In this document: piece after piece, positions 14,580 through 64,000 of the stretch
How positions within the stretch are numbered: the stretch's first letter is position 1
Layout of the letters: every line of letters starts with the position of its first letter
Assembly: GCA_945861875.1 (NCBI GenBank)
Contig: CAMAWC010000001.1
Span: 41,805-105,804, forward strand
Source: Bordetella parapertussis
GTDB lineage: Bacteria; Pseudomonadota; Gammaproteobacteria; Burkholderiales; SG8-39
Direction: 5' to 3'
Length of the DNA: 64,000 nucleotides
Made by a program: the position numbers and the translations under genes
The notes under the pieces: model-generated
The model's database searches: none
Seen by the model: only the letters and a program-made list of their open reading frames with translations
What the model was told of the DNA's origin: nothing

Positions 14580-16141
14580 TGGATCCTGAATTGGGCGCCC
14601 GGGCCCCGGTCTATGTAATCCAGCACGGCACCATTCGCCGCACACAATTCCCGGGCGATATACAAACCGAGCCCGGTGCCTCCGCTGTAGGTGGTGAAGA
14701 AGGGCTCGAACAGTTGCGCCTGCAATTCACGGGCAACCCCCGTGCCATCGTCTGACACGTGCAATTCTACCCGATTCAAATGGCGCAAAACCTGCACTCT
14801 CACGCTGCCCGGTTGACTGCGGCAGTGACGCGTCGCGTTGCGCAGCAGGTTCCATATGACCTGGTGCAGATGGACAGGATCCGTCTCCACAACGGCGCCC
14901 TCGACCAGATCGAGCTCAATGCAATCCTCGGCAATTCCCTCCTGCGCGACGAACTCTTGCACAAATGACGGCAGGAACACACCGATATCAAGAGCTTCCG
15001 GTTGCACCCGGTCGCGCCGGGAGAGTTCAAGCACATCGCGAACCATCCGGTCCAGGCGCTGGGCATTGTCGCGAATGATCGCGGTAAGACGCGCCTGCCC
15101 TTCGGCACGTTGCTCCTCACACAGGAGGTCGCTGGCATGTGTGATCGCCGAAAGGGGATTGCGGATCTCGTGCGCAATATTCGCGGTCAGACGCCCCAGG
15201 GCCGCCAGTTTCAATTGCTGCGCCTGCTCCTGCAGGCGCGACATGTCATCAAGGAAAACAAGTGTAAAACTGCCCCCTTCGATGCCGGCCTCGACAAACC
15301 GGGCTCGCACCAGTTTTCCGCTTTCGACGTGCCTGAGCGTATTGCGGGACGCCCCGCCGCGGCGCCAATCGAGCAGCAGGGCCGCCAGCTCGTGCGAATA
15401 ATCCTCGACCTGCGCCAGTTCCGGGGTGGCTCCACCCAACAGCATCGTCACCTGCGGATTGCTTTGGCGCACAAGACCGTTGTTGTCGACCACCAGCACG
15501 CCATCCTGCACGTCCTGTATGACCAGTTGGTTGATACGAAGCTGGTTGGCAAGGTCGATGCCCCGCTGGCGGGCCAGCCTCTCGTTGGTAATGACCCGTT
15601 GCGCCAGCTGGTTCGTTATCAGGGCCGTGGCAAAATAGCCAATTGACAACAGGCCGGGCTGCACAAATCCTGCCGTTGTCTGATCATAAACAAGAACCCA
15701 GAACGCCTGTTCGAGTAATACTGCTATCGACGCAAGGGCGGCGTAAAACAACATCAGCTTGCGCTTGCTGACCAACGCAGCGGCGGCGAGGGAAATGAGC
15801 AGCATTACGCCAAGTCCGCTGCGCATGCCGCTCGAGGCATTCATCAGCAACACTGTTGCCACGATATCCGTTATCACCTGCAGCGAAAGTTGCAGGTCAA
15901 AGTAAGCCCGATAGCGCTCAAGCAACAGTTGATACGCCACCGCGAGCATGAGATAGCCCATGCTGACGTAGGTAAAACGGCTCAGCGAGTAGGTGCCGAA
16001 ATTGAGCGCGTCCTCAAAGACCAGCACTGCCAGCAGGAACATCCCCGCCACAAGCAGGCGATAAATATTGAAGTAACGAAGCGAAACCCAGAAAGAGTCT
16101 GGTCGCTGCTCCTCCGGATACCGCCAGTCAGCGGTTCGCAT
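14558..16141 (-). CDS. PilS-like sensor histidine kinase with polytopic N-terminal domain
   Basis: About six N-terminal TM helices (FWVSLRYFNIYRLLVAG...), a PAS-like linker, H-box HEIRNPLSAI and G-box GGTGLGLYIAREL. The start is placed at M38 of the track ORF (16141). Confidence 0.8.
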   Translation of the reverse strand: MRTADWRYPEEQRPDSFWVSLRYFNIYRLLVAGMFLLAVLVFEDALNFGTYSLSRFTYVSMGYLMLAVAYQLLLERYRAYFDLQLSLQVITDIVATVLLMNASSGMRSGLGVMLLISLAAAALVSKRKLMLFYAALASIAVLLEQAFWVLVYDQTTAGFVQPGLLSIGYFATALITNQLAQRVITNERLARQRGIDLANQLRINQLVIQDVQDGVLVVDNNGLVRQSNPQVTMLLGGATPELAQVEDYSHELAALLLDWRRGGASRNTLRHVESGKLVRARFVEAGIEGGSFTLVFLDDMSRLQEQAQQLKLAALGRLTANIAHEIRNPLSAITHASDLLCEEQRAEGQARLTAIIRDNAQRLDRMVRDVLELSRRDRVQPEALDIGVFLPSFVQEFVAQEGIAEDCIELDLVEGAVVETDPVHLHQVIWNLLRNATRHCRSQPGSVRVQVLRHLNRVELHVSDDGTGVARELQAQLFEPFFTTYSGGTGLGLYIARELCAANGAVLDYIDRGPGAQFRIQWPSHRQ

Positions 16142-16152
16142 GAGGGGACGGC

Positions 16153-16380
16153 TCAACGCGGCCCGAGTCTGCGGTGCGCCTCTCCGCAGAAATACGCCCC
16201 ACCCTCTTTGAGCGCCTCGATCTGGGGCAGGTTGACACCGCAATGAGCACAACCGACCATGCGCTCGCCTTCAGTCGAGGCATGCGCCTCCGGCTTTCGT
16301 GCCGACGCCTTGCGGCCAAACCCCTTTACCAACAGGTAGAGGACGGCCGCTGCCAGAATAAGGAGGAGTAGCTTGCTCAA
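16153..16380 (-). CDS. PP0621-family small protein (N-terminal TM helix plus C-terminal Cys/His zinc-ribbon-like motif)
   Basis: C-terminal motif CAHCGVNLPQIEALKEGGAYFCGEAH; hydrophobic segment SKLLLLILAAAVLYLLV. A TTG start at 16380 is preferred to the ATG at 16467. The gene lies 11 nt upstream of the kinase gene. Family name is from memory. Confidence 0.55.
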   Translation of the reverse strand: MSKLLLLILAAAVLYLLVKGFGRKASARKPEAHASTEGERMVGCAHCGVNLPQIEALKEGGAYFCGEAHRRLGPR

Positions 16381-27710: not shown

Positions 27711-29222
27711 ATGCCGCCGCTCCTCACGCTTCCCGCCATCGCCTCCCATCCGAGCCGGCGCTTTGCGCTTTCGGTCGCCGAAACCCAGGATTGGCTGGCC
27801 TCGCTGCCGGCGAACAATGCCGTTGAGACGGGTCGCTGCATAGCAGAACAGGTGACCGCACTCAATCGCAGCCGCACCCCACTGCGCGAACGGCTGGTGC
27901 TTACCGCGCTTTTGCGGGATGCAACCGAACAACTGCTTCCCGATCTGGATGCGCAGATCGCCGGCGCACATGTCCCGCTGCAACCCAAAACACGCGCAGT
28001 CGCGCGGTTGATCGATGATCTGCTAAGCGAATTTGCCTACGCTTACAAACTCGCAGTAAGCGAACTTGCCCAGCGCTGGTTTCGCTTCGGGATGGCACGG
28101 CGACTGCACCTGCCGGTAACGCGCGCACTGCAGATGCTGGCGCGCCGGCTGATTCTTGCCCATCGCATTTACGCCCCGGCACCACCGATGGTCTGGCTGG
28201 AAATGCACCAGCTGTTTGGCATCGCACGCCAACATCACATTGGAAAACTCCAGCTATCCGGCCCGCAGGACAGCCCGCTGGCAATTTACCGCGAGGCCCT
28301 CACACTTTCCTTCGCCGGGCCGCACAAGCTGATGCAGGGCGAACTTGATGTTGTATTGAAGTTCATCTCGGACAACGCCGAGCTGGCGACCTTCATCGAC
28401 GCAGTTCCGCAGGATCCCGTGGACGGACTTTTCCTGATACAGCCCGGACGGGATGCGCCAGGCACGGCATGGGGCAAACGCAACACCCCTAAGCACGCTG
28501 GCAAGATTAACGCCGGCGAGTTAGTGCTCAATACTTCGCGTCTCGCCGATCACGCCTCGGGACGGGCAGAATTTGAACAACCGGCAGGCGCGCACGATGC
28601 CGGTGAAGCCAGACTTGCGCCGACAGGCCTGATGCGCCGGCTGGAGCGCTACTGGACGGGCTCTGCCAATCGCCAATACAGCCGATTACGCCGCCAGACT
28701 CGCGTAGACATCTGCGTCGGGTTGCATGGCATCTGGCGTTTCTTGAGCCAGAGTGGTCCCGATGGTGGAATACAGACCAGCGAGTGGATGGTAAACAACG
28801 AAAGCCCGGGTGGTTTCGCCCTGATGCATGTCAGCGGGCCGGTCGAATCCGTACAAGTGGGGGAATTACTGGGGGTGCGCAGCCGCGACAGCGATCGCGT
28901 GCACATATGCGTCGTACGCTGGGTGCTCTCCGAGAGCCCGGAGCACGTGGAATTGGGGCTCGAGGAACTTGCGCCCAACGCCAAACCGGTTTCCATCGCG
29001 AAACTTGCGAGCTCCGGGCGTTACGAAGCCGACACCAAGCCGGGGCTGCTGTTGCCGGAAATCCCGGCGTTAAGGCGTGCCGCGGCAATCCTTGCACTTC
29101 CCGGCAGCCTGGCTTCGGCGAGTGAATTCCACCTCGCCGAGCCCGATCAGCGCGTACGCACAACACAACTTCTGGAACAGACTCTGTCACTGGAGCTGTA
29201 CCGTTTCAGTACAGTGAACTGA
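27711..29222 (+). CDS. Large uncharacterised protein with C-terminal PilZ (c-di-GMP-binding) domain
   Basis: 503-aa ORF. It has RRQTR (aa 327-331, RxxxR) followed 31 residues later by NESPGG (aa 363-368, D/NxSxxG), then a beta-rich segment. The N-terminal ~310 aa are helical with no family I can name. Confidence 0.6.
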   Translation: MPPLLTLPAIASHPSRRFALSVAETQDWLASLPANNAVETGRCIAEQVTALNRSRTPLRERLVLTALLRDATEQLLPDLDAQIAGAHVPLQPKTRAVARLIDDLLSEFAYAYKLAVSELAQRWFRFGMARRLHLPVTRALQMLARRLILAHRIYAPAPPMVWLEMHQLFGIARQHHIGKLQLSGPQDSPLAIYREALTLSFAGPHKLMQGELDVVLKFISDNAELATFIDAVPQDPVDGLFLIQPGRDAPGTAWGKRNTPKHAGKINAGELVLNTSRLADHASGRAEFEQPAGAHDAGEARLAPTGLMRRLERYWTGSANRQYSRLRRQTRVDICVGLHGIWRFLSQSGPDGGIQTSEWMVNNESPGGFALMHVSGPVESVQVGELLGVRSRDSDRVHICVVRWVLSESPEHVELGLEELAPNAKPVSIAKLASSGRYEADTKPGLLLPEIPALRRAAAILALPGSLASASEFHLAEPDQRVRTTQLLEQTLSLELYRFSTVN

Positions 29223-50398: not shown

Positions 50399-50414
50399 TG
50401 GCATCCTGATTGCG
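50399..50414 (+). promoter_or_regulatory. Sigma54-like -24/-12 element, TGGCATcctgaTTGCg
   Basis: GG and GC are at the consensus spacing, with one mismatch (T for C at the sixth position). Located 112 nt upstream of the chrB-like ATG. Its -12 half is the first unit of the 12-bp tandem array. Confidence 0.4.
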
Positions 50415-50477
50415 AGGCTGATTGCGAGGCTGATTGCAAGACTGATTGCAAGTCTGATTGCGAGGCTGATTGTAAGG
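50406..50477. repeat. Tandem 12-bp repeat, six units (CTGATTGCGAGG x3 plus CTGATTGCAAGA, CTGATTGCAAGT and CTGATTGTAAGG variants)
   Basis: Read directly from the sequence. It lies in the 280-bp divergent intergenic region between tusA and the chrB-like gene. Confidence 0.9.
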
Positions 50478-53639: not shown

Positions 53640-55211
53640 ATGAGCAAACGAAGTCTCGTTCTTTGGTCGCTGGTCGTCCTCACGCTTGCCGCCGCCGCGG
53701 GCGGTTGGGCTTACTGGCGCTCGCGCGCCGACGCACCTTCGGAATTCCGTTTTGCCAAGGCCGAACGCGGGTCGCTCGTCGCCGCAGTGGCCGCGACCGG
53801 CACCCTCAACCCGGTGACATCGGTACAGGTCGGCTCCCAGGTCTCGGGGCAGATCAAGGAGTTGTATGTCGACTTCAACTCCGTCGTGAAAAAGGACCAG
53901 GTCATTGCGCGCATCGACCCCGAGGCGTTTGAACTGCAGGTGCGCCAGGCCACGGCAGACCTCGAGGCGGGCCGAGCCACGGTACTCACGCAAATGGCGG
54001 CGATCGGTGCGCAGCGTGCCGCGGTTTCCAAGGACGAGGTCAACCTCGCCGACATGAAACGCGACTATGACCGCAAACTGACGCTGTTCGAAAAGAATTT
54101 CATTTCCGCAGCTGATCGCGACAAATCAATGGCGCTGTTCAACGGCGCGCAAGAACAGCTGAAAAGCGCAAACGCACAACTGGGCGTGGCGCAGGCCCAG
54201 ATCAAGAACGGCGAAGCCGTGGTGCAGCAGCGCGAAGCGCAGCTGGCGCAGGCCAAGGTCAACCTCGACCGCACCATGATCCGCTCGCCGGTAAACGGCA
54301 TTGTCATCAAACGCAGCGTCGATGCCGGCCAGACCGTCGCCGCCAGCCTGCAGGCGCCGGAGTTGTTCATCATTGCGCAGAACCTCACCGAAATGGAGGT
54401 CGGCGCCTCGATCGACGAGGCCGACGTGGGACGCATCCGTGTCGGGCAGAAAGCCACGTTCACCGTCGACGCATTCCCCGGACGCAGTTTCAGCGGCGAG
54501 GTAAAACAGGTGCGCAAAGCCGCCCTGACCGTTCAGAACGTGGTGACCTACACGGTTGTGGTGGGCGCCGCCAACCCCGACCAGGTGCTGCTGCCGGGGA
54601 TGACCGCCAACGTGCGTATTGTCACCGATGAACGCGCCAGCACGCTCAAGGTGCCCAACGCGGCATTGCGCTTCCGTCCGGCCGGTGTGAACGAGCCTTC
54701 CGCGGGAAGCGGCGGTGGAACCGCCGCCCCCGGCGCTGCCGCGCCGGCCGGCGGCCCGGGCGCAGCGGCCCAGGCGCTGCGCCAGCGCCTGGTCACAGAA
54801 TTGAAACTTGATGCCGACCAGCAAACCAAGCTTGAGGCGATTTACGCCGAGGCGCGCCAGAAAATGGCCGGCCTGCGCGACCTGCCCGAAGCCGAGCGGG
54901 CGCGCGCCCTGGAACGCAATCGCGCGGAAATTCGCGCGCGCATCACCGAGATCCTGACGGCGGAGCAAAAGCCGCGTTACGAAACCATCGCCGCCGAACA
55001 GTCCGGGCGCACCGGCGCGCGCGGCCGCGTATTCGTTGCAGGTGAGGACGGCAAACCCAAGGCCGTTTCGCTGCAACTGGGCCTGTCCGATGGCAGCATG
55101 ACCGAGGTAATCTCGGGCGACATCAAGGAAGGCGACCAGATCATCGTCGGGACGGCGCAAGCCTCGAGCGCGTCCCCGACCGCACCGCGCGGACCGCGCA
55201 TGCCGTTCTAG
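53640..55211 (+). CDS. MacA-like periplasmic adaptor (membrane-fusion protein) with a ~115-aa insertion
   Basis: 523-aa ORF with an N-terminal TM, lipoyl/hairpin/beta-barrel order (VSGQIKELYVDFNS.., coiled coil, IRSPVNGIVIKRSVDAGQ). An insertion follows, and the membrane-proximal strands resume at ..GRVFVAGEDGKPKAVSLQLGLSDGSMTEV. Confidence 0.85.
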   Translation: MSKRSLVLWSLVVLTLAAAAGGWAYWRSRADAPSEFRFAKAERGSLVAAVAATGTLNPVTSVQVGSQVSGQIKELYVDFNSVVKKDQVIARIDPEAFELQVRQATADLEAGRATVLTQMAAIGAQRAAVSKDEVNLADMKRDYDRKLTLFEKNFISAADRDKSMALFNGAQEQLKSANAQLGVAQAQIKNGEAVVQQREAQLAQAKVNLDRTMIRSPVNGIVIKRSVDAGQTVAASLQAPELFIIAQNLTEMEVGASIDEADVGRIRVGQKATFTVDAFPGRSFSGEVKQVRKAALTVQNVVTYTVVVGAANPDQVLLPGMTANVRIVTDERASTLKVPNAALRFRPAGVNEPSAGSGGGTAAPGAAAPAGGPGAAAQALRQRLVTELKLDADQQTKLEAIYAEARQKMAGLRDLPEAERARALERNRAEIRARITEILTAEQKPRYETIAAEQSGRTGARGRVFVAGEDGKPKAVSLQLGLSDGSMTEVISGDIKEGDQIIVGTAQASSASPTAPRGPRMPF

Positions 55212-55298
55212 GCATGTGCGACGCCCGTGCCATCGGCTGGAAACGCCCTACTGGCGCGGCTTTCCAGCCATATACATCCCGGGTTATTGCGGCCGACC

Positions 55299-56045
55299 AT
55301 GTCTGAATCGCTGATCCGCACCCTCGCCCTGACCAAGGAATACCTGGTGGGAGAGCAGACCGTCGCCGCCTTGCGCGGCGTATCGGTCGATATCGGCGCC
55401 GGCGCCTTCGTCGCGGTGATGGGCCCGTCCGGCTCGGGCAAGTCAACCTTCATGAACCTGCTTGGCTGCCTCGACCATCCGAGCTCGGGTGAATATTTCC
55501 TTGCCGGCGAAAAAGTATCGGTACTGGACAACGATGCACTTGCGGTGATTCGCAACCGGCGTATCGGCTTTGTCTTCCAGCAGTTCAACCTGTTGCCGCG
55601 CACATCGGCCCAGGACAATGTCGAACTGCCGCTGCTCTATGGCGGCGTCGCGGCGGCCGGCCGGCGTGAGCGGGCCATCCGGCGCCTCACCCAGGTCGGC
55701 CTTGCCGACCGCATGCACCACCATCCGGCGCAGTTATCCGGCGGACAGCAGCAGCGCGTGGCCATCGCAAGGGCGCTGGTCAACGATCCGGTGCTGATCC
55801 TCGCCGACGAACCCACCGGTGCGCTTGACTCACAAACCAGTCTTGAAGTGATGGCGCTGTTGCAACAACTGAACCGTGAGGGCATGACCGTCGTACTGGT
55901 CACGCACGAACCGGACATGGCGGCTTTCGCGAGCCGCGTCATCCTGTTCCGCGATGGGCGCGTGGTGGAGGATCGCGAGCAGGTTCCCAAGGATGCGGTT
56001 GCCCTGCTGGAACAATCCAGGCCAGCCGCAACGCAAGCCGCATAG
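55299..56045 (+). CDS. MacB/LolD-type ABC ATP-binding protein
   Basis: 248 aa from ATG 55299 with GPSGSGKST, LSGGQQQRVAIARAL and ILADEPTGALD. Confidence 0.9.
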   Translation: MSESLIRTLALTKEYLVGEQTVAALRGVSVDIGAGAFVAVMGPSGSGKSTFMNLLGCLDHPSSGEYFLAGEKVSVLDNDALAVIRNRRIGFVFQQFNLLPRTSAQDNVELPLLYGGVAAAGRRERAIRRLTQVGLADRMHHHPAQLSGGQQQRVAIARALVNDPVLILADEPTGALDSQTSLEVMALLQQLNREGMTVVLVTHEPDMAAFASRVILFRDGRVVEDREQVPKDAVALLEQSRPAATQAA

Positions 56046-57277
56046 TGAACATACTCGCGACCCTGCGCATTGCCCTGCGCGCCCTGCGCGTGAACAAGCT
56101 GCGCTCCGGCCTGACCATGCTGGGCATTATCATCGGTGTGGGCGCCGTCATCACCATGATCGCCGTTGGCGGGGGCGCGCAGGCGCGCGTCGAAGAGCAA
56201 ATCCGCAGCCTAGGCTCCAACTTGATGATAGTAATACCCGGTTCGACCACCGCCGGTGGCGTGCGCCTCGGCGCAGGGGCGGCGCAAGGGCTTACAGAGG
56301 ATGACGCCTGGGCGATGATGCGCGAGATACCCTCCGTGCAGGCAGCCGCGCCGTCGCAGCGCGGCAGCGGCCAGATCATCGCGGGCAACAGCAACTGGTC
56401 GACGAGCATACAGGGCGTGACACCGGAGTACTTTGAGGCGCGGGACTGGCCGATCGTATCCGGTCGCGGTTTTGAACCGGCCGAACTCGCCGGCGCCGGC
56501 AAGGTGGCGATCATCGGCGTTTCCACCGCCAAACAGCTGTTCGGCGACACTGATCCGGTTGACCAGCAGGTGCGCATCCGCAGCGTGCCCTTTACCATCA
56601 TCGGCGTGCTCGACCGCAAGGGCCAGAGCATGATCGGGCAGGATCAGGATGACGTGGTGATGGTGCCCTTGTCCACCGCTCGCAACCGCCTTTTCGGCGC
56701 GCCCCAGGGCAAGCTGCGCCGCGTCGGCCTGATTACGGTAAAAGTGCGCGATGGCCAGGACATGAAAGAAGCCGAGGAGCGCATACGCGAACTATTGCGC
56801 CAGCGCCACAAACTGCAATCGGGCGCCGACGACGACTTCACCATCCGCAACCTCACCGAAATACTGCAGGCACAGGAGGCGTCCAGCAAAATCCTGACCA
56901 TACTGCTCGCCGCGGTCGCTTCGGTATCGCTGCTGGTGGGCGGCATCGGCATCATGAACATCATGCTGGTTTCGGTCACCGAGCGAACGCGCGAGATCGG
57001 CTTGCGCATGGCCGTCGGTGCGCGCGGCCGCGATATCCTGACGCAGTTTCTGGTCGAGGCGGTGACGCTCGCCCTTATCGGCGGACTGCTTGGCACCCTC
57101 GCCGGAATCGCCGGCTCGGCGGCCGTCGGACAACTGGCCGGCTGGCGTACGGAAATGCAGCCCGAGGCGATTGTGCTGGCGGTGGGTTTCGCCGCAGCTA
57201 TCGGCGTCTTTTTCGGCTTTTACCCTGCGCGCAAAGCGGCGCGACTGTCACCCATAGAAGCGCTGCGCTACGAATAA
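56045..57277 (+). CDS. MacB-type ABC permease (FtsX-like, large periplasmic domain)
   Basis: 410-aa ORF whose GTG start overlaps the upstream stop. It has an N-terminal TM, a ~230-aa periplasmic domain and a C-terminal three-helix FtsX bundle (..ERTREIGLRMAVGAR..). Confidence 0.85.
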   Translation: MNILATLRIALRALRVNKLRSGLTMLGIIIGVGAVITMIAVGGGAQARVEEQIRSLGSNLMIVIPGSTTAGGVRLGAGAAQGLTEDDAWAMMREIPSVQAAAPSQRGSGQIIAGNSNWSTSIQGVTPEYFEARDWPIVSGRGFEPAELAGAGKVAIIGVSTAKQLFGDTDPVDQQVRIRSVPFTIIGVLDRKGQSMIGQDQDDVVMVPLSTARNRLFGAPQGKLRRVGLITVKVRDGQDMKEAEERIRELLRQRHKLQSGADDDFTIRNLTEILQAQEASSKILTILLAAVASVSLLVGGIGIMNIMLVSVTERTREIGLRMAVGARGRDILTQFLVEAVTLALIGGLLGTLAGIAGSAAVGQLAGWRTEMQPEAIVLAVGFAAAIGVFFGFYPARKAARLSPIEALRYE

Positions 57278-57309: not shown

Positions 57310-59097
57310 TCAGAGCGTTGCAATAAACAGCTTCAGCCAGCCCGGATCGAGTTCGATGTCGCATTCATCATGCCGGGCGTGCGAGTCGAACAGCGGCCGG
57401 CCCTGCATATAGCAAAAACGATGGCCCAACTGCGCCGACAGGCGCCACGCCCTGGTGTTTTGCATGCCCTCGGCAACAATGACACCCACCCTGGCACCCT
57501 GCGGAACAATGAACAAGTCCGCCATGGCCTCATCGTCGATACCGATGATCACCGAGGCGTGTTCGAATGTCGCAAGACGCTCCCGCCAGCCGATACTGGC
57601 GGCGTCGACGACCTCAAACCCGTTTGCCTCGAACTGCGGCAGCAGCGCATCTTCATTGGCGATGCGACGCGATGTGAAATTGCGGCGCGACATGAATATG
57701 CGCCGACCGGGTCCGGCGCCAAGTCCGCCGGTGGAAAACTTGCGCCGCAAGTACTGGATGCCCACCTGCGAGACCGTCTCGGCGAGAACCAGCAGGGATG
57801 ATACCGCCAGCTCGTCCACTTTCACTCCCTGCCCGGCGGGGACGCTGATCAACTGCGGCTCGGCACCGCAGGCGACGCGCAGCATTTCGCGCTCGTCCCG
57901 CCCGAGTTCAGCGGCGACCACCAGCGGCAGCCCGCGCAATGCGGGGATTTGCTCGACAAACCACAAGCGCGCAAGCGATTCATACAGCCAGCGGTAGCGG
58001 TCACCGCCCTCGCCGAGCAGGAACGCGCCGCCCGCGTGATGCGGAGGATCGGCCATCAGGTCAAGGAGCATACGCCCGTCGTCGGCGTTAAATCGTACCG
58101 GGCCGTCGCCGTACGGGTAGTGCAGATACTCGGCGACGATGCCTTCGAGGAGAATTTCGCGCCCGTCCGCGATCACCGCAAAGCCCGGGCGCACCACCTC
58201 GGCTGTGCGGACAAAACCCATAAAAGCAGGCGGCACGACCGCTTTGCCCGGCGGCCAGCTGGCGGCAAACGATTCGGGCAGGGTCGGCGGGCGAAGGCCG
58301 AGAGGCAACACCTGCTTTTCCCCCATATCGCGGTAGTCCGCCTGATGGAAAGCACACCACCTCTCCAGGGTACCCTCATGCACAGTGATTACACGCGTGT
58401 GTTGCGGCTGCATCTCGCAATAGCCTTTTACCGCCAAAGCCTCCCACGCCATTTCGAAGCGTAGTCGGGTCAGCTCGAGCAATGCCTCGGCATAACCGAG
58501 TGCCAGCGCCCGCTCGTGCGCGGCGATGGCCCCAAGCGTATCGCCGCAATAAGCAAGCGCCCCACCGAGAAGATAGTAAGCGTCCGCCTGGCCCGGACTA
58601 AGCGCCACGACGCTCCTCATGCATTCAACCGCCTCGCGGTTACGATCCTCGTCTATATACAACCGGCCGAGTTCCATGTGCGCCTTGGGCAGGTCCGGAA
58701 ACAACATGATTGCCTGTAACAAGAAATGCTCGGCCTCGCGCATCATGCCTTGCGCCCGCATCAGCACCCCGAGATTAAGGTGCGCCACGGGCAAGGTTGG
58801 CTCCAGTTCCAGCGCGCGCTTGAAGTGCCGGAATGCCCCGGCGAGATCCCCCGTCCTGCGGTAGGCCTCTCCGAGGTTGCTGTGCATGTTCGCGTCATCA
58901 TCACGCCGCTCGATCGCCCGTCCGATAAGTGCGATGGCTTCGGCATAACGGCTGCGCGCCAGTTCAACCAGCCCGTATTGATGCAAGACCCGGGCGTCGT
59001 CCGAACCGGAGGACAACAATTCCAGGTAGATTCTCTCGGCCTCATCGAGCCGGCCAGCGCGCTGATGAGCAATCGCCGCCGCCATCTTTGCTTCCAT
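57310..59097 (-). CDS. TPR-repeat protein fused to a DUF563/GT61-like glycosyltransferase domain
   Basis: About six TPRs (aa ~10-230), then a C-terminal domain with a YRWLYESLARL-type motif and ..FMSRRNFTSRRIANEDAL..ASVIIGIDDEAMADLFIVPQGARVGVIV. The start is placed at ATG 59097 (GAGGGTGG RBS); the track start at 59211 overlaps the upstream gene by 44 nt. Confidence 0.6.
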   Translation of the reverse strand: MEAKMAAAIAHQRAGRLDEAERIYLELLSSGSDDARVLHQYGLVELARSRYAEAIALIGRAIERRDDDANMHSNLGEAYRRTGDLAGAFRHFKRALELEPTLPVAHLNLGVLMRAQGMMREAEHFLLQAIMLFPDLPKAHMELGRLYIDEDRNREAVECMRSVVALSPGQADAYYLLGGALAYCGDTLGAIAAHERALALGYAEALLELTRLRFEMAWEALAVKGYCEMQPQHTRVITVHEGTLERWCAFHQADYRDMGEKQVLPLGLRPPTLPESFAASWPPGKAVVPPAFMGFVRTAEVVRPGFAVIADGREILLEGIVAEYLHYPYGDGPVRFNADDGRMLLDLMADPPHHAGGAFLLGEGGDRYRWLYESLARLWFVEQIPALRGLPLVVAAELGRDEREMLRVACGAEPQLISVPAGQGVKVDELAVSSLLVLAETVSQVGIQYLRRKFSTGGLGAGPGRRIFMSRRNFTSRRIANEDALLPQFEANGFEVVDAASIGWRERLATFEHASVIIGIDDEAMADLFIVPQGARVGVIVAEGMQNTRAWRLSAQLGHRFCYMQGRPLFDSHARHDECDIELDPGWLKLFIATL

Positions 59098-59167
59098 TTT
59101 TACCACCCTCTGGCAGGCATCCTGCCGGCGCCAAGCCATTGCCGGCCGAAATATTGCATACAGGTCT

Positions 59168-60754
59168 TCAGGATAATTCCGCGCGCCAGATTGCGGCGAC
59201 GGCCTCTTCAAAGCGGCGCGCGAATCCGGCCGCGTCGCATAATGCCGATACCTCCAGGCGCTGACGCATCACCGATCTCAGCTGCGCAAGCTTCGCCCGA
59301 TCCAGCGCGAGCCCGACAGCCTTGCTGAGGTATTCCTCCGGGCTTGCCGCAATCCATTCGCCAAAGCCCGAGCAGGCCAGCAGGCTAGCGCCGGAACGGG
59401 CAAAACCATGGTGCCCGGCCAGCGTGATGACCGGCACCCCCATCCACAAGCATTCACATGTGGTCGCACCGCCGTTATACGGGAAAGGGTCGAGCGCGAC
59501 ATCGGTGCGTGCGATCAGGTCGCGAAACCGGCCGCTTGGCAGCCGCGGTTGGAATTCCAGGCGTGCCGGATCCACTCCGGCACCGCGCATCGACACGACT
59601 ACTCTCTCGCGACCCTCCCCGGCGGCGAGCCCGGCCACAACCAGCTTGCTTGCCGGCACGCGCAACAGCAATTCCGCCCACAGACGGAGTACGGAGTCGT
59701 TTAATTTTGCCGGGTGATTGAATGATCCAAAAGTGACCGGCGCATCCGGCTTCCGCGGCCCCGGCGCCGGCACATCCCGCGGCGGACTGAAGGTCCACAA
59801 GGCCGAGGGCAGGCGCAGCACGCGCTCACTATGCACCGCGTCGCTGAGCCCGACCGGGTCGGCCATCGTGTCGCTGAAACGATAGTCCATCGCCGCCAGG
59901 CCGGTCGTCTTGAGATAGCCCAGCCAGCTCACCTGGAGCGGTGCCGGCTTGCGTGCGATTACCAACAGCCGATTGTCACGGGTATGACCGGAAAGATCGA
60001 CAAGAACATCAACGCCGTCGCCGTGAATGCGACGCGCCACGGACGCATCATCCACCCCATGTACATTGTGCCAGTGCGCGGCAAGCGCCTGCAGGCGGCG
60101 CGTACCCTCGTCATGGACCGGGGTACTGGAATAACAGGAGACATCGAACCGTTCCCGGTCGTGATGCTCAAGCAGGGGCTCAAGAAAGGCGAGCGTGGCG
60201 TGATCACGAAAATCGCCGGACAGGTAGGCCAGCCGGATCGGTCCCGCGGCGTGCCGCGGCTGCGCGGGCAACCGGGGGATGTTGTCAGCATGACGCCGCG
60301 CCCATTGTCGATGAGCAAGAAACAAGGCGTCCGGTGTGATATCCGCAAGGACATTCATGGCAAACAGGGCGTGCTGTCCTGCGTCAAGATGATCTGGTTC
60401 GCGATCAAGAACCTCGTTAAAGCACCGCAAAGCCGCCGCCGCATCACCCATTTCGTATAGGCACGAGCCGAGTTGGACGCGCACGTTGTGCAGATTCGGG
60501 TCGCGCTGCAAGGCCGCGCGATAATGCGTTGCGGCAAGCACATAGTCGCCGAAGTGCTCGCGCAGCACATGACCCAGGTTGACTGTCGCGGCAAGATGGC
60601 CATCGTCAACGGCCAGCGCAGACTCAAATGCCGCGCGCGCCGCACCCGGGTCGCCGGCAGCAAGCGCATCAAGGCCGCGCCCGACCCATTGCTGCGCCAA
60701 ACGTGAATGCGCATCACCGTCGCGCCAGAATCGCGAAAACAGCTTAGCGAGCAT
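59168..60754 (-). CDS. TPR-repeat O-GlcNAc-transferase-family (GT41, SPINDLY-like) glycosyltransferase, paralog A
   Basis: 528-aa ORF with N-terminal TPRs and motifs YLSGDFRDHA, FGSFNHPAKLND and LDPFPYNGGATTCECLWMGVPVITL. Its ATG lies 11 nt inside the 3' end of the upstream gene. Confidence 0.75.
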   Translation of the reverse strand: MLAKLFSRFWRDGDAHSRLAQQWVGRGLDALAAGDPGAARAAFESALAVDDGHLAATVNLGHVLREHFGDYVLAATHYRAALQRDPNLHNVRVQLGSCLYEMGDAAAALRCFNEVLDREPDHLDAGQHALFAMNVLADITPDALFLAHRQWARRHADNIPRLPAQPRHAAGPIRLAYLSGDFRDHATLAFLEPLLEHHDRERFDVSCYSSTPVHDEGTRRLQALAAHWHNVHGVDDASVARRIHGDGVDVLVDLSGHTRDNRLLVIARKPAPLQVSWLGYLKTTGLAAMDYRFSDTMADPVGLSDAVHSERVLRLPSALWTFSPPRDVPAPGPRKPDAPVTFGSFNHPAKLNDSVLRLWAELLLRVPASKLVVAGLAAGEGRERVVVSMRGAGVDPARLEFQPRLPSGRFRDLIARTDVALDPFPYNGGATTCECLWMGVPVITLAGHHGFARSGASLLACSGFGEWIAASPEEYLSKAVGLALDRAKLAQLRSVMRQRLEVSALCDAAGFARRFEEAVAAIWRAELS

Positions 60755-62375
60755 TGCACCACTCGCGCCACATGTCCCGGTATGCCGACTCCAGGTCGCG
60801 CATAAAACCTTTTTCGTCCATCAGGGTTGATGCGCGCATTCGCTCGCGCAGGCCGGCGCGAAGGTCCGTCAGGCCGGCAAGATCCGTGGCGCAGCGGCGC
60901 GCAATCTCAACATAACCGTCATGGTCGCGGGCAACGAACGATTCCAGCCCGAGCTGTGACAACAGGGACACCCCGATACGCCCGATCGGGGCGGCGCCGG
61001 CCAGGGAAATGACCGGCACGCCCATCCATAGCGCGTGCAGGCTGGTAATGCCGCCATTTTGTGGAAACGGGTCGAGCAATACATCCACAGAATGGAGCAA
61101 CTGCAGGAAACCCGCCATCGGCCGTCGCCCGGCGATCTCAAGACGCGATGGATCAAGACCGGATGCCGCAAAGCGCGCCGCCACCATCCTCTGGATATCC
61201 GGCAGTTCGCCATGCTCTATCACCACCAGCAATCGCGAGCGCGGCACAGAGCTGATCAGGCGCGCCCACAATGCCACGACCGCGTCGTTGATCTTGTGGC
61301 CGCTGTTGACCGAGGCAAAGGTGATTCCGCAGTCGATCCCGCCGGCAAGCGCCGGCAACGGACCCACGGCAGGGCTGTCCGGATGCGGTCGGAAACAGGC
61401 GTAGGAATGCGCCAGTCTCATCAGCCGTTCGCAACTGAGGCGCTCGGTCAGCCCCGGCGGATCGATATGCTCATCGGTAAGACGCCAGTCAATGGCTTTC
61501 ATGCCGGTGGTCTGCACCGCGCCGAACCAGGTCACCTGCACCGGTGCGGGCTTGCGCGCCAGGGCAAGCAGGCGGTTGCCACGGGTGTGTCCCGAAAGGT
61601 CGACCAGGATGTCGATGCCATCGGCGCGCATCATCGCCGCCGCATCGGTGTCCGACATGCCGGCGATATCGCGCCAAAGGTCCGTCATGGCCCGCAAACG
61701 TCCGGTGGTCTCATCCGCGACGGGCGCACTGCTGTAGCAGACGATGCGATGGCGCGCGCGGTCATGCCCCGCCAGGACGGGCTCGATAAAGTAACGCACG
61801 GCATGTTCGCGCAAGTCGGCCGATACATAACCGATGGTCAGCGGCCGGTCAGGATCGCGGCTATTTGCATACAGAACGGTTTCGGGCATCAACGCATCGG
61901 CCACCCTCTGCCCAAAAAAGCAATGTGCGGCACAGACCTCGTCCGAAGACACATGGTCGCAACAGCCGATGACAAACAAAAGATTGGAATGCACCCGCGC
62001 CGAGTCCGGATCGAGTGCCAGCGCGCGCTGCAGGACGGACAGAGCCTCGCGATGGCGGCCGACACTGGCCAGAAAACCGCCATAGTCCTTGAGGTAGGCC
62101 GGTTTCGCACCGCCTTTTTCTATGGCTTGCTCAAGATAGGCAATGGCGATGTCCCAGTCACCGCGTGCATAGCTCACCACGCCGGCCAGATACAGCGCGT
62201 CCGGGTCGTGCGGCGCGCTGCCCAGCGCGAGTTCGCCCGCCCGCGCGGCGCTCTTCAGGTCCCCCGCCATGAACGCGGCCATGCCATCGCTCAGCACTTT
62301 CCCAAGATCAAGCGCCGGCGACAGCACAGCGGGCGACCGCTTCAGATGCTGCAGCAATGCACCCAGCAGTTTCAC
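60744..62375 (-). CDS. TPR-repeat O-GlcNAc-transferase-family (GT41) glycosyltransferase, paralog B
   Basis: 543 aa from GTG 62375 (GTGA overlap with the upstream stop). Motifs YVSADLREHA, FASVNSGHKIND and LDPFPQNGGITSLHALWMGVPVISL. Confidence 0.75.
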   Translation of the reverse strand: MKLLGALLQHLKRSPAVLSPALDLGKVLSDGMAAFMAGDLKSAARAGELALGSAPHDPDALYLAGVVSYARGDWDIAIAYLEQAIEKGGAKPAYLKDYGGFLASVGRHREALSVLQRALALDPDSARVHSNLLFVIGCCDHVSSDEVCAAHCFFGQRVADALMPETVLYANSRDPDRPLTIGYVSADLREHAVRYFIEPVLAGHDRARHRIVCYSSAPVADETTGRLRAMTDLWRDIAGMSDTDAAAMMRADGIDILVDLSGHTRGNRLLALARKPAPVQVTWFGAVQTTGMKAIDWRLTDEHIDPPGLTERLSCERLMRLAHSYACFRPHPDSPAVGPLPALAGGIDCGITFASVNSGHKINDAVVALWARLISSVPRSRLLVVIEHGELPDIQRMVAARFAASGLDPSRLEIAGRRPMAGFLQLLHSVDVLLDPFPQNGGITSLHALWMGVPVISLAGAAPIGRIGVSLLSQLGLESFVARDHDGYVEIARRCATDLAGLTDLRAGLRERMRASTLMDEKGFMRDLESAYRDMWREWCNAR

Positions 62376-64000
62376 TGCGGCTCGCCGACGGTAAAAGCCA
62401 GCGGTGGCCGGCCGGCCAGATGGTGACGCCACATCACTTCGTAGGCCCGTTCCAGGTTGCGCACGAATCGCAGGGTATCAAACAAGGGCAGTTTTTCGTG
62501 CTGGCCGGATAAATGCCGGCGCAACGCGCCAAGTTCTTCGGGCACGCGGGCCAGCCGTACTGCGGTCTCCTCGTACTGCCCCATACTGGCGCAAACCAGT
62601 TGCGGCAGCCCGGCAGCACAAAGCAGGCTGGCACCCACGCGCGAAGGGAAACTCTCTTGCGGGCAGCTTATCAGCGGAACCCCCGCCCATAACGCGTCAC
62701 TCGCACCGGTATGCGCGTTCACCAGCAAGGTGTCGAGAAACAAATCAGCGCGCGACAGGCGCGCCAGATGGGCAGGCTTGGGCAGGGTTCCAGCGAAAAT
62801 GAGGCGTTTTGGATCGATGCCGCGGGCCGCCGCTTCGCGCCCGAGATTGTCCCGCGCCAGGGTATTGCTCTGGTACAGCCACAGCACGCTGCCCTCCACC
62901 CTGGCGAGAATGCGCATCCAGCAATCGAACATCACCGCATCTATTTTGTAAACATGGTTGAAGCAGGCAAATACAAAACCATGCTCCGGCAAGCCCAATT
63001 CACGCCTTGATGGCGGCGCATCGGCTATCACCTGATGATTATCATTGATCTGGTATGAATCGGGCATGCGGACAAGCTGCTCGCCGAATTGCGCCACATG
63101 CCCGGGCGGCGCGACGACTGTGTCGACAATCGCGTAATCGTTGATTCCCTTTCCTGTGGAGCCCGGATAGCCAAGCCAGGCGACGCGCAAGGGCGCCGGT
63201 CGAAGCGCGAAAACCTCCGGCCTCGCCTCATAGGTGAAGCCCTTCAGATCAACCAGGATGTCTATGCCGTCGTCAAAGATCCGCTGCGCCGAGCCGGCCG
63301 CACTTTCGTTGCGAATGTCGTGAAAATAATCCGCTTCGGCCACCACCCGCCGGCGATAGTCGCTGCCGTCGTCAATGCCGATGGAATAAGCGCTGACCTC
63401 GAATCGCGCGCGGTCGTGCAGCCCGAACAGGCCGTTCATCAGGTGCATGGTCGGATGGCCGTGGTAATCAGCGGAAACATAGCCGAGGCGAATCCGACCG
63501 CCGGGCTTGCGCGACGAGAAATCAAAGCGGGGGCGCGCAGCCCCCAGCCCGGCCTGTACGCGTGCAGCATGGGCGTCGGTTACCGCACTCCGGAGAGCCT
63601 GGGGCAGTGCAAACTGGTACGCCACAAAGGGGTGCAGCCCGGCAAACTCAGGGGCCAGCGGCGCACTTGCCCAGCGGCCAAGGACTCGCGACAGCGCGCC
63701 CAGGTCGTGATGCCAGTCACACGCCCAGGTGCGCACGCGCTCCAGCGCAAGCACCATTTCCGGGTCGTCCGGTCGCAAGGCCAGCCCCCGTTCGTAACAC
63801 GACAAGGCCTCGGCCAGATGGCCGAGCTCGAACTCAAGCTTGCCAGTCAGTTTCAGTACATCAATCCAGTCCGGCCTGTCCGATAGCGCCTGCCGGGCCC
63901 ATTGGAGCGCTTCTGCGTAGACTCCACGCTGAAACAGGATGTTCCCGAGGTTATGGGCAAACTCGGCCCGGTCTGGCACCAGACTTACCGCCTCGCGGGC
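62372..64000 (-). CDS. TPR-repeat O-GlcNAc transferase homolog (GT41, eukaryote-OGT-like subtype), 5' end outside the window
   Basis: The reading frame is open to the window edge. The catalytic region is collinear with metazoan OGT from memory (YVSADYHGHPTMHLM, EVFALRPAPLRVAWLGYPGSTG, FACFNHVYKID, NAHTGASDALWAGVPLIS, ..LERAYEVMWRHHLAG). Confidence 0.8.
   Translation of the reverse strand, partial: AREAVSLVPDRAEFAHNLGNILFQRGVYAEALQWARQALSDRPDWIDVLKLTGKLEFELGHLAEALSCYERGLALRPDDPEMVLALERVRTWACDWHHDLGALSRVLGRWASAPLAPEFAGLHPFVAYQFALPQALRSAVTDAHAARVQAGLGAARPRFDFSSRKPGGRIRLGYVSADYHGHPTMHLMNGLFGLHDRARFEVSAYSIGIDDGSDYRRRVVAEADYFHDIRNESAAGSAQRIFDDGIDILVDLKGFTYEARPEVFALRPAPLRVAWLGYPGSTGKGINDYAIVDTVVAPPGHVAQFGEQLVRMPDSYQINDNHQVIADAPPSRRELGLPEHGFVFACFNHVYKIDAVMFDCWMRILARVEGSVLWLYQSNTLARDNLGREAAARGIDPKRLIFAGTLPKPAHLARLSRADLFLDTLLVNAHTGASDALWAGVPLISCPQESFPSRVGASLLCAAGLPQLVCASMGQYEETAVRLARVPEELGALRRHLSGQHEKLPLFDTLRFVRNLERAYEVMWRHHLAGRPPLAFTVGEPQ

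Follow-up and report, generated by a model that had tools for sequence, protein, structure and literature searches.

An array of TPR-glycosyltransferase genes next to type IVa pilin genes: a putative cytoplasmic pilin O-glycosylation cassette in an uncultured betaproteobacterium

The glycosyltransferase array

This work deals with four consecutive genes, denominated D, A, B and C in the order of their coordinates, on the minus strand of a 64,000-nt stretch of DNA (the window; GenBank assembly GCA_945861875.1, contig CAMAWC010000001.1, positions 41,805 to 105,804). Each of them combines N-terminal tetratricopeptide repeats (TPRs) with a C-terminal glycosyltransferase domain, and they are considered here together with pilin genes located just beyond the end of the window. 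An earlier reading of the letters, in the following called the sequence-only reading, had recognized four consecutive minus-strand open reading frames (ORFs) of this architecture, and both the ORFs and Pfam agree with it: in the search with profile hidden Markov models those of GT41 (A, B and C), GT61 (D) and TPR all matched, the glycosyltransferase profiles above their cut-offs.

Gene C (62372-64000) is represented in the window by the 3' 542 codons and the stop of a 649-aa ORF that carries TPRs and PF13844 (E 1.4e-94, 317.7 bits, cut-off 25). It is open to base 64000, no in-frame stop occurring up to the window end. Gene B (60744-62375, 543 aa) has about three TPRs and PF13844 Glyco_transf_41 (E 3.6e-42, 144.8 bits, cut-off 25), and its product is called identically by gene callers in four independent assemblies. 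Gene A (59168-60754, 528 aa) also has about three TPRs followed by PF13844 Glyco_transf_41 (E 7.9e-46, 156.9 bits, cut-off 25). Gene D (57310-59097, 595 aa) matches TPR models and PF04577 Glyco_transf_61 (E 1.2e-13, 51.9 bits, cut-off 27); its start at 59097 is the one given by gene callers in most assemblies, and independent gene calling on several metagenome assemblies yields the same products for the array. It is the last gene of the array and convergent with a macB-like gene ending at 57277.

The GTGA junction (62372-62375) and the 11-nt overlap (60744-60754) proposed previously were both read directly in the sequence. The GTG start of B shares bases with the TGA of C (cagGTGAaa), and the ATG of A lies 11 nt within B (aATGCTCGCTAAg; overlap ATGCTCGCTAA). 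From these overlaps, coupled translation and a fixed stoichiometry of the array genes are plausible. The sole non-overlapping junction is the 70-nt spacer between A and D (59098-59167, minus strand), in which no terminator-like site was found; direct reading of its sequence gives a Shine-Dalgarno-like site ahead of D (agaGGGTGGtaaaaATG / GGGTGG). No hydrophobic segment was found in A-D by hydropathy, and the four proteins are devoid of export signals.

A and B share 38% pairwise identity, and either of them is about 30% identical to C. That A, B and C arose by duplication at this site not long ago is ruled out by this range of 30-38% together with 1:1 orthologues at 64-74% identity in L011-L013 (L numbers designate the loci compared in this work). 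Since each of A and B has its own 1:1 orthologue there, they are old paralogues and not recent duplicates.

The GT41 proteins C, A and B

Full-length C matches the Pfam GT41 family with E 3e-94. Its closest solved relative is human OGT (E 4e-127), with which it is collinear from the TPRs through both catalytic lobes (7NTF). The correspondences with OGT motifs given in the sequence-only reading are borne out by alignment to the human enzyme: VSADYHGHPTMHLM, FNHVYKID and NAHTGASDALWAG of C align with the motifs of His498, Lys842 and His920-Thr921, respectively. C is without the metazoan intervening domain and has only about 5-6 TPRs. Its essential residues, namely the Lys in YKID and the His in GHPT, are conserved in the L011-L013 orthologues. 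The UDP loop reads N-A-H-T-G compared with N-G-H920-T921-T922 in OGT, with the His and the first Thr retained and Gly in place of the second Thr, and at the position of human OGT C917 and SPINDLY (SPY) Y744 there is a Val that is kept in orthologues. Loop and Val gate are compatible with a UDP-GlcNAc donor, without proving it.

A and B had been seen as a divergent bacterial OGT subtype. They are indeed divergent, but their closest solved relatives are SPINDLY from Arabidopsis (structure 7Y4I) and the “OGT” of Thermobaculum terrenum (TtOGT, structure 5DJS), not OGT itself. For A the bit scores are 298 with SPINDLY (E 1.4e-87), 288 with 5DJS (E 9e-85) and 198 with human OGT (E 1.5e-57); for B they are 332 (E 5.9e-98), 337 (E 1.3e-99) and 144 (E 4e-41), respectively. 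The alignments run end to end, with residues 42-524 of A on SPINDLY 7Y4I and residues 25-541 of B on TtOGT 5DJS, and the matches of A and B to HMW1C are weak (E 1e-3 to 2e-7). SPINDLY is a protein O-fucosyltransferase, and for T. terrenum OGT O-GlcNAc activity was not seen (PMC9715652).

The statement that A and B keep all three OGT motifs was correct for the essential Lys (equivalent to human OGT K842, SPY K665 and SeOgt K445) and the essential His (human OGT H498, SPY H495), but the phosphate loop is of the SPINDLY/TtOGT type (NGGAT in A, NGGIT in B), not of the OGT type NGHTT. A has the Lys in SFNHPAKLND and the His in DFRDHA (DHAT), B has them in SVNSGHKIND and EHAV, and both residues are also conserved in the L011-L013 orthologues. 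By mutagenesis, S496, K665, Y744 and T748 of SPY matter for fucosyl transfer, and Zhu et al. proposed that the residue at SPY Y744 / human OGT C917 sets the size of the donor pocket (PMC9715652). At these four positions A has Ala, Lys, Tyr and Ala and B has Ala, Lys, Gln and Ile, so that the SPY S496/T748 equivalents are Ala/Ala in A and Ala/Ile in B and neither protein carries the full SPINDLY-type set. Because S496 and T748 are not kept, A and B are not named fucosyltransferases here, and the SPINDLY residues give no clear indication of their donor sugars.

The gate residue is Tyr in A (FPYNGGATT), the same as SPY Y744, and Gln in B (FPQNGGITS), the latter conserved in L011-L013; Val (C), Gln (B) and Tyr (A) are each conserved among their own orthologues. 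In longer arrays of related genomes the successive paralogues show Met, Tyr, Met/Cys, Cys/Ser, Cys and Cys, then Ile/Val in the C-type protein. Judged from these residues, the paralogue-specific gates look like specialisation, not redundancy.

In the long arrays with 6-7 genes one conserved class of GT41 paralogues has Arg in place of the catalytic Lys (SF[CS]SFPRISN; L014 2115-4010, L021 2901-4748, L023 1187-3058, L024 1086-3089, L053 12303-14198). Its members may be pseudo-enzymes or may follow an altered chemistry; none of them occurs in the array of the window.

Gene D, a divergent member of the GT61 fold

D had been described as about six TPRs plus a GT61/DUF563-like domain. The TPR-GT61 architecture stands; the AlphaFold2 model contains seven TPR-like helical hairpins in residues ~1-230 (58408-59097), followed by the GT61-fold domain in residues ~231-595 (57313-58407). 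The pLDDT (predicted local distance difference test) is 94.1 over the entire protein and 95.7 in the model of the glycosyltransferase domain alone. Foldseek and PDB profile searches with full-length D were dominated by TPRs and were therefore repeated with a model of the glycosyltransferase domain only and a TPR-free DUF563 profile. With the domain alone, 16 Foldseek matches in the PDB had E <=0.001 and all were chains of POMGNT2 (GT61; best E 6.4e-12, template modelling score ~0.5); the next matches were the GT9 enzymes WaaC/TibC with E ~2e-3 to 4e-3. A phmmer search of the PDB with D, and with the 443-aa and 225-aa proteins encoded upstream of the pilin genes (see below), gave TPR matches or noise only, and an NCBIfam scan returned only TPR look-alikes below threshold (PrsT, MamA, PilW).

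The glycosyltransferase domain of D has 3,495 relatives among 1.84 billion representatives, only 26 of them with E <1e-30, and about 25 of the closest 30 hits are proteins of ~550-640 aa that match by their C-terminal part, like D. With full-length D the homologue search yielded 12 true full-length relatives, the rest being TPR proteins.

Typical bacterial DUF563 proteins keep all of the motifs N-Y-x-H-W, S-R-R-x4-R-R-x2-N-E, E-Q and G-x-HGAG-L-x-N. When the TPR-free DUF563 profile is aligned to EOGT, the residues R372/R377, Q412 and H432 fall on motifs 2, 3 and 4. In EOGT N245/R372/R377 form the N-R-R constellation for the UDP phosphates, Q412 binds uridine and its mutation abolishes activity, and POMGNT2 H166 / EOGT H248 is the proposed catalytic His (PMC13123520). 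D keeps Arg471/472 and Arg477, then Asn481-Glu482. At the usual N-x-x-H it has G-D366-R-Y-R369-W, in which Asp366 is invariant in orthologues and position 369 varies (R/K/G/C/A); at E-Q it has E506-R507, the Gln being replaced by Arg507; and at G-x-HGAG-L-x-N it has G519-I-DDEA-M-A-D527 (HGAGLTN -> DDEAMAD). The replacement of this last stretch by GIDDEAMADL, noticed already from the letters, is thus real and conserved in the orthologues, as are the other motif replacements with the exception of position 369. Of the N-R-R constellation, as mapped by sequence profile and not by superposition, the Arg pair is kept and the Asn position is occupied by Asp366, and the GT61 His, Gln and HGAG motif are all three lost.

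The claim of a fourth glycosyltransferase is only partly sustained: the Pfam GT61 match and the fold speak for it, but the catalytic hallmarks are lost. Because several residues that define active GT61 enzymes are missing, D counts as a putative enzyme only. As judged from its sequence and model, it is a GT61-fold protein under selection with an active site that is either reorganised or dead.

The pilin genes and the locus beyond base 64000

Longer contigs with the same locus were found by look-up of exact proteins in metagenome assemblies. One of them, the ENA contig L001 of 164 kb, matches the window with 100% identity along 13,257 nt and reaches 8.4 kb past its end, so that the extension beyond base 64000 recommended by the sequence-only reading could be made: the true start of C and the genes upstream of it became visible. 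Full-length C comprises 649 aa (L001 8055-10004), and this means that 107 of its N-terminal residues lie outside the window.

Directly upstream of C in L001, on the same strand, there are two 138-aa pilin genes, one of them at L001 6815-7231, whose products are 95% identical to each other, the second ending 109 nt before the ATG of C. Both pilins match N_methyl and Pilin and carry the leader MK(A/T)MQKG|FTLIELM; among solved structures they are closest to PilE of Neisseria and further type IVa major pilins, and the mature pilin consists of Ser/Thr to 24%. The pilin unit, made up of the gene with its upstream region and its terminator, is duplicated in tandem (~715 bp; L001 6592-7306 and 7307-8021, equivalent to ~64355-65784 in window numbering). 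Assemblies of the same organism contain one copy (L006, L007, L008, L010) or two (L001), and the relative L012 has three; the difference reflects either true copy-number variation or assembly collapse. A strong intrinsic terminator follows each pilin gene, one of them at L001 7998-8025, ~30 nt before C, and because of this terminator between pilins and C the glycosyltransferase genes are not simply co-transcribed with pilin.

Sigma-54-like sites (A/G)GGCATGGTCCTTGCT (GGCAT-N5-TTGCT) were observed at L001 6743-6758 and 7458-7473, 57-72 nt before each pilin ATG. They would tentatively fit control of pilin by PilR; the pattern is no more frequent in the locus than in shuffled sequence, and one site is a duplicate of the other.

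Further upstream of the pilin genes L001 encodes a 443-aa TPR protein with a PF01075 GT9 match of 17.6 bits (cut-off 22). Six homologues of this TPR/GT9-like protein were scanned: those of L038 (25.1) and L045 (25.5) exceed the cut-off of 22, that of L051 (17.6) is below it, and in L050, L053 and L027 no GT9 match at E <=0.01 was found. A separate TPR protein in L051 (4316-6184) scores 26.6 bits with GT9. In the TPR/GT9-like protein a single internal stretch is hydrophobic (maximum 19-residue hydropathy 2.41); it is taken to be a buried strand of a Rossmann-type domain. The adjoining 225-aa protein has a weak GT8 match around the DxD-like TDCDM and no hydrophobic segment.

The complete module shows the order GAF-MshEN-T2SSE ATPase, GAF-HD, small opposite-strand ORF, 225-aa GT8-like, TPR/GT9-like, 1-2 pilins, C, B, A, D. 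The genes for the GAF-MshEN-T2SSE ATPase and the GAF-HD (HD-GYP-like) protein head the module in L001 (1-3882) and also in L051 and L053. The MshEN domain binds cyclic di-GMP (c-di-GMP), and the ATPase is of the pilus or MSHA-type extension kind; this pair suggests a cyclic-nucleotide control of the pilus. The small opposite-strand ORF (105 aa, L001 4004-4321) is without a Pfam family and 74-89% identical among copies; it is always divergent, between the GAF-HD and GT8-like genes, in every complete module (L011, L013, L029, L050, L051, L053).

The lack of sugar-nucleotide, flippase, polymerase and exporter genes that had been remarked in the array holds for 10 kb on either side of it. Within this range no oligosaccharyltransferase gene, no Wzx/Wzy, no ABC polysaccharide exporter and no initiating phosphotransferase was found, and none of the genes belongs to the Pfam families of polytopic O-oligosaccharyltransferases (Wzy_C) or GT-C enzymes. 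A standard lipid-linked pathway upstream, which the sequence-only reading had named as evidence that would speak against protein glycosylation, was not found there either.

Conservation of the pilin-GT41 association

The association was followed in both directions. In the forward test one genome per GTDB species was scanned with an alignment of C homologues, which gave 39 loci. In 10 of these the pilin family lies directly upstream of the first GT41 gene on the same strand, and no prepilin-type gene at all was found in the remaining 29 loci (~429 kb). Walking upstream on the same contig by look-up of pilin homologues added an 11th case, L021, where two pilin genes head a seven-gene array. In the reverse test all three further pilin homologues (73-75% identity) were located in the same module, followed by 4-7 TPR-GT41 genes.

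The full order (small ORF, GT8-like, TPR/GT9-like, one to three pilins, C, B, A, D) is kept in L011, L012 and L013, with proteins 62-88% identical, and L029 has the same module with four GT41 genes. In L032, L038, L039, L045 and L049 C is only 33-43% identical, yet the pilin (64-67%) is found directly upstream and a B-type gene follows. In L014 a pilin fragment precedes five SPINDLY-like GT41 genes, after which comes a C-type gene, and in L021, L023, L024, L026 and L027 six SPINDLY-like genes precede the C-type gene, the array start lying beyond the 10-kb flank. Even a D homologue with 34% identity closes an array (pilin, GT41, GT41, GT61), which occupies the same chromosomal spot beside moaC and an M48 peptidase gene. 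Altogether the pilin-GT41 adjacency is seen in L011-L014, L029, L032, L038, L039, L045, L049, L050, L051, L053 and L055, and the number of GT41 paralogues per array varies from 2 to 7 in betaproteobacterial metagenome-assembled genomes. A version with C and B is present in the complete metagenome-assembled chromosome OZ257137.1. A rule of exactly one C-type gene per array is ruled out by L055, which has two SPINDLY-like genes and D but no C-type gene.

Interpretation

With a probability of roughly 0.6, judged from sequence analysis and by analogy, the array is the downstream part of a chromosomal, pilin-linked, cytoplasmic multi-enzyme cassette for pilin O-glycosylation in an uncultured betaproteobacterium. 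This modifies the sequence-only reading in several points. Protein glycosylation stays the best interpretation of the module but its size of four genes does not, since the TPR/GT9-like and the weakly GT8-like genes sit upstream of the pilins. The target, which had been called unknown, now has an obvious candidate in the type IVa pilin genes 109 nt upstream of C, a synteny kept across diverged genomes. Nor is the system wholly undescribed, as in Synechococcus elongatus the glycosylation of PilA requires a TPR-GT41 Ogt encoded beside pilA (PMC9306852).

In the proposed mechanism A-D would act in the cytoplasm, as neither a signal peptide nor a membrane segment is present in them. The prepilin, rich in Ser/Thr, would be bound by their TPR superhelices before or during membrane insertion and O-glycosylated by the GT41 domains. 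Each GT41 paralogue may use a different donor or site, since a different residue is kept at the proposed donor-size position. A role in lengthening the protein-linked sugars, or else as a binding subunit without catalysis or a scaffold, could fall to D and perhaps to the GT8- and GT9-like proteins encoded upstream, and the glycosylated pilin would be exported via the Sec/SRP (signal recognition particle) route and then assembled. Recognition by TPRs and modification in the cytoplasm are proposed by analogy with FlmG and flagellin (PMC7591256) and with S. elongatus Ogt and PilA (PMC9306852). The variation in array size (2-7 GT41 genes) could represent diversification of pilus glycoforms, e.g. 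under pressure from pilus-binding phages.

Several points weigh against pilin glycosylation by this cassette. The target is assigned solely by gene adjacency, and the strong intrinsic terminator separates the pilin genes from C. The globular domain of pilin is periplasmic, which means that a cytoplasmic modification must precede SRP/Sec insertion, and this is unusual for pilins. The closest solved relative of B, T. terrenum OGT, did not show O-GlcNAc activity (PMC9715652), D is without the hallmark GT61 residues, and donor sugars are not inferable from sequence. Finally, no pilin is near many C-type homologues with 55-58% identity (L016, L017, L031, L040) or any of the more distant ones, and the long array of L018 has none in the 1.36 kb visible upstream. 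Because C-type genes stand alone elsewhere and L018 lacks a visible pilin, the pilin association is a property of particular clades, within which it is tight and position-specific.

The best surviving alternative, though an unlikely one, is a general regulatory system in the cytoplasm that works by protein O-glycosylation (O-GlcNAc or O-fucose-like) and has cytosolic targets, e.g. the neighbouring c-di-GMP-linked pilus ATPase or further pilus machinery, but not the pilin, the pilin adjacency being a matter of co-regulation. Characterised OGT and SPINDLY modify many nucleocytoplasmic proteins and the GT41-family HmwC O-GlcNAcylates multiple Yersinia proteins (PMC11329713). The missing export signals, the terminator between pilin and glycosyltransferase genes, the conservation of the GAF-MshEN ATPase and the GAF-HD protein in the module and the many C-type homologues without pilin would all agree with it. 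However, in every array with a visible start except L018 the pilin lies 100-350 nt upstream of the first glycosyltransferase on the same strand, a spacing tighter than expected that argues against loose co-regulation. The S. elongatus precedent indicates the pilin itself, and this pilin is unusually rich in Ser/Thr and well conserved.

Somewhat less probable still is that some members are non-enzymes, so that there would be fewer than four catalysts; D especially, and perhaps others, might be TPR adaptors or pseudo-glycosyltransferases that bind pilin or glycan and keep the active GT41 enzymes together in a complex, or might be pilin chaperones. D has lost the His at the POMGNT2 H166 position (Arg369, variable in orthologues), the near-invariant Gln (EOGT Q412) and the HGAG motif and is nonetheless under clear purifying selection, and one GT41 class of related long arrays has Arg for the catalytic Lys. 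On the other hand, D retains, of the GT61 nucleotide-phosphate site, the Arg pair and Asn-Glu, its confident model has the GT61 fold, and the conserved Asp366, Asp521, Asp522 and Glu523 could form a different, e.g. metal-dependent, site. A, B and C keep the residues essential in GT41.

An ordinary cell-envelope polysaccharide or lipopolysaccharide locus with TPR-bearing glycosyltransferases is very improbable: JGI annotates D homologues as “capsular polysaccharide biosynthesis protein” and GT9, GT8 and GT61 members act mostly on glycans, but Wzx/Wzy, exporter, initiating phosphotransferase and sugar-nucleotide genes are absent from the flanks described above, characterised GT41 enzymes all modify proteins, all proteins here are soluble and the gene conserved beside theirs is that of a pilin and not one for envelope polysaccharide.

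Pilin glycosylation by the cassette would have implications beyond this locus. Known pilin glycosylation relies on periplasmic oligosaccharyltransferases that use lipid-linked glycans, and the soluble OGT-type route is represented by a single cyanobacterial genetic study; if our reading is true, the TPR-GT41 pilin route occurs widely and can comprise several enzymes. GT41 proteins abound in bacteria and are mostly without an assigned substrate (the structures of XcOGT and TtOGT are solved and their native substrates are not known), and the gene context here nominates a concrete one. Paralogues that stand side by side and differ at the proposed donor gate make donor and acceptor specificity of GT41 directly testable, and they would represent a natural panel of donor-specificity variants, possibly shaped by pilus-binding phages. 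In Pseudomonas pilus glycans block pilus-specific phages, and for this reason variable arrays could matter for phage-host dynamics in freshwater and groundwater. A wider generalisation is tentative and falls short of even odds: in a broad group of uncultured Betaproteobacteria, type IV pilins may be decorated in the cytoplasm by an expandable GT41 array (usually one OGT-like and 1-6 SPINDLY-like members) with paralogue-specific sugars or sites and auxiliary GT61-, GT9- and GT8-like proteins, i.e. by a third route without lipid carriers or oligosaccharyltransferases.

Other features of the window

The window carries genes of ribonucleotide reductase, ProRS, ValRS, LeuA and LptF/G, and its GC content is even throughout; by these housekeeping genes and the even GC an origin from a mobile element or plasmid is ruled out. 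Cassette-bearing freshwater metagenome-assembled genomes were deposited as “Bordetella parapertussis” or “uncultured Bordetella” (L011, L013, L016, L017) or as “Enterobacteriaceae” (L027). These labels look wrong, because both the genes present and the relatives point to uncultured Burkholderiales or other Betaproteobacteria.

Between D and moaC (53640-57277, plus strand) there is a MacA/MacB-type tripartite efflux set with membrane-fusion protein, ABC ATPase and FtsX-type permease, which looks like an insertion or loss at this site since the D homologue abuts moaC directly in L055 and L056. A PilS-like sensor kinase (PF25323 6TM_PilS, E 1.4e-27, with HisKA and HATPase) and a PilR-type sigma-54-dependent regulator are encoded at 13197-16252 on the minus strand, ~47 kb from the pilin-glycosyltransferase cassette; in other bacteria the PilS/PilR pair controls pilA transcription. 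Furthermore, a 12-nt tandem repeat (CTGATTGCGAGG, 5.6 copies, 90% matches) is located at 50406-50472 in the intergenic region between TusA-like and ChrB-like genes, and a 503-aa ORF among housekeeping genes (27711-29222, plus strand) has no Pfam match at E <=1e-4.

Comparison with known systems

The pilin-specific systems PilO/TfpO, PglL and TfpW resemble the cassette in that a glycosylation gene is located immediately downstream of pilA and an O-glycosylated type IVa pilin is the outcome. In contrast with the array enzymes, they are polytopic membrane oligosaccharyltransferases or GT-C proteins that work in the periplasm with lipid-linked glycans, and none of them is encoded here.

HMW1C acts in the cytoplasm before Sec export, and glycosylated HMW1 and AIDA-type adhesins pass through the Sec route. 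HMW1C/NGT and TibC/Aah have in common with the predicted cassette that soluble cytoplasmic glycosyltransferases modify a surface adhesin before its Sec-dependent export and that their genes lie beside that of the substrate. HMW1C, itself a member of GT41, differs by N-linked hexoses and the lack of TPRs; among its products on the adhesin are N-linked hexoses and links of glucose to glucose (summary in PMC9715652). The autotransporter heptosyltransferase TibC is, unlike the array enzymes, a distinct dodecameric iron enzyme.

Compared with metazoan OGT and plant SECRET AGENT, C aligns through the TPRs and both lobes and has the equivalents of His498, Lys842 and His920-Thr921; it differs from metazoan OGT by the missing intervening domain, the ~5-6 TPRs, Val for Cys917 and Gly at the Thr922 position. 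Whereas OGT has thousands of substrates, the gene context of C indicates one dedicated substrate. With SPINDLY and TtOGT, A and B share the NG-x-x-T phosphate loop, and A also the Tyr744 gate; unlike SPINDLY, neither keeps S496/T748, and B has a Gln gate. D shares the GT61 fold and the Arg pair with POMGNT2 and EOGT, which are both protein-directed GlcNAc transferases, POMGNT2 extending protein-linked O-mannose. In contrast with them, D is predicted to be cytoplasmic and is fused to TPRs, with Asp for Asn and without the His, Gln and HGAG-L-T-(N/H) motif.

A parallel in another filament system is FlmG of Caulobacter, the TPR domain of which binds flagellin (PMC7591256): there, too, a TPR domain at the N-terminus binds the subunit of the filament for cytoplasmic modification by a glycosyltransferase at the C-terminus, and the gene shows linkage to the filament system. 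FlmG is, however, a single enzyme of another glycosyltransferase family, and flagellin is exported by the flagellar type III system, not inserted via Sec/SRP like pilin.

In the literature on pilin with GT41, O-GlcNAc transferase or SPINDLY, the study on S. elongatus was the sole functional precedent found. Suban et al. (2022) showed that Ogt of strain PCC 7942 (Synpcc7942_0051), encoded beside the pilA genes 0048/0049, is required for the GlcNAc modification of PilA, for which a cytoplasmic site was proposed (PMC9306852). As in the present array, a TPR-GT41 protein without secretion signal is encoded beside tandem major-pilin genes; pilin glycosylation and normal piliation depend on Ogt, and its catalytic Lys is required. 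In contrast with that one cyanobacterial enzyme and its GlcNAc, the putative cassette described here comprises three diverged GT41 proteins, a GT61-fold protein and two more putative glycosyltransferases in Betaproteobacteria. It can probably be regarded as an expanded multi-paralogue and mixed-family form of the Ogt-dependent PilA glycosylation of Synechococcus, seen so far only in uncultured Betaproteobacteria.

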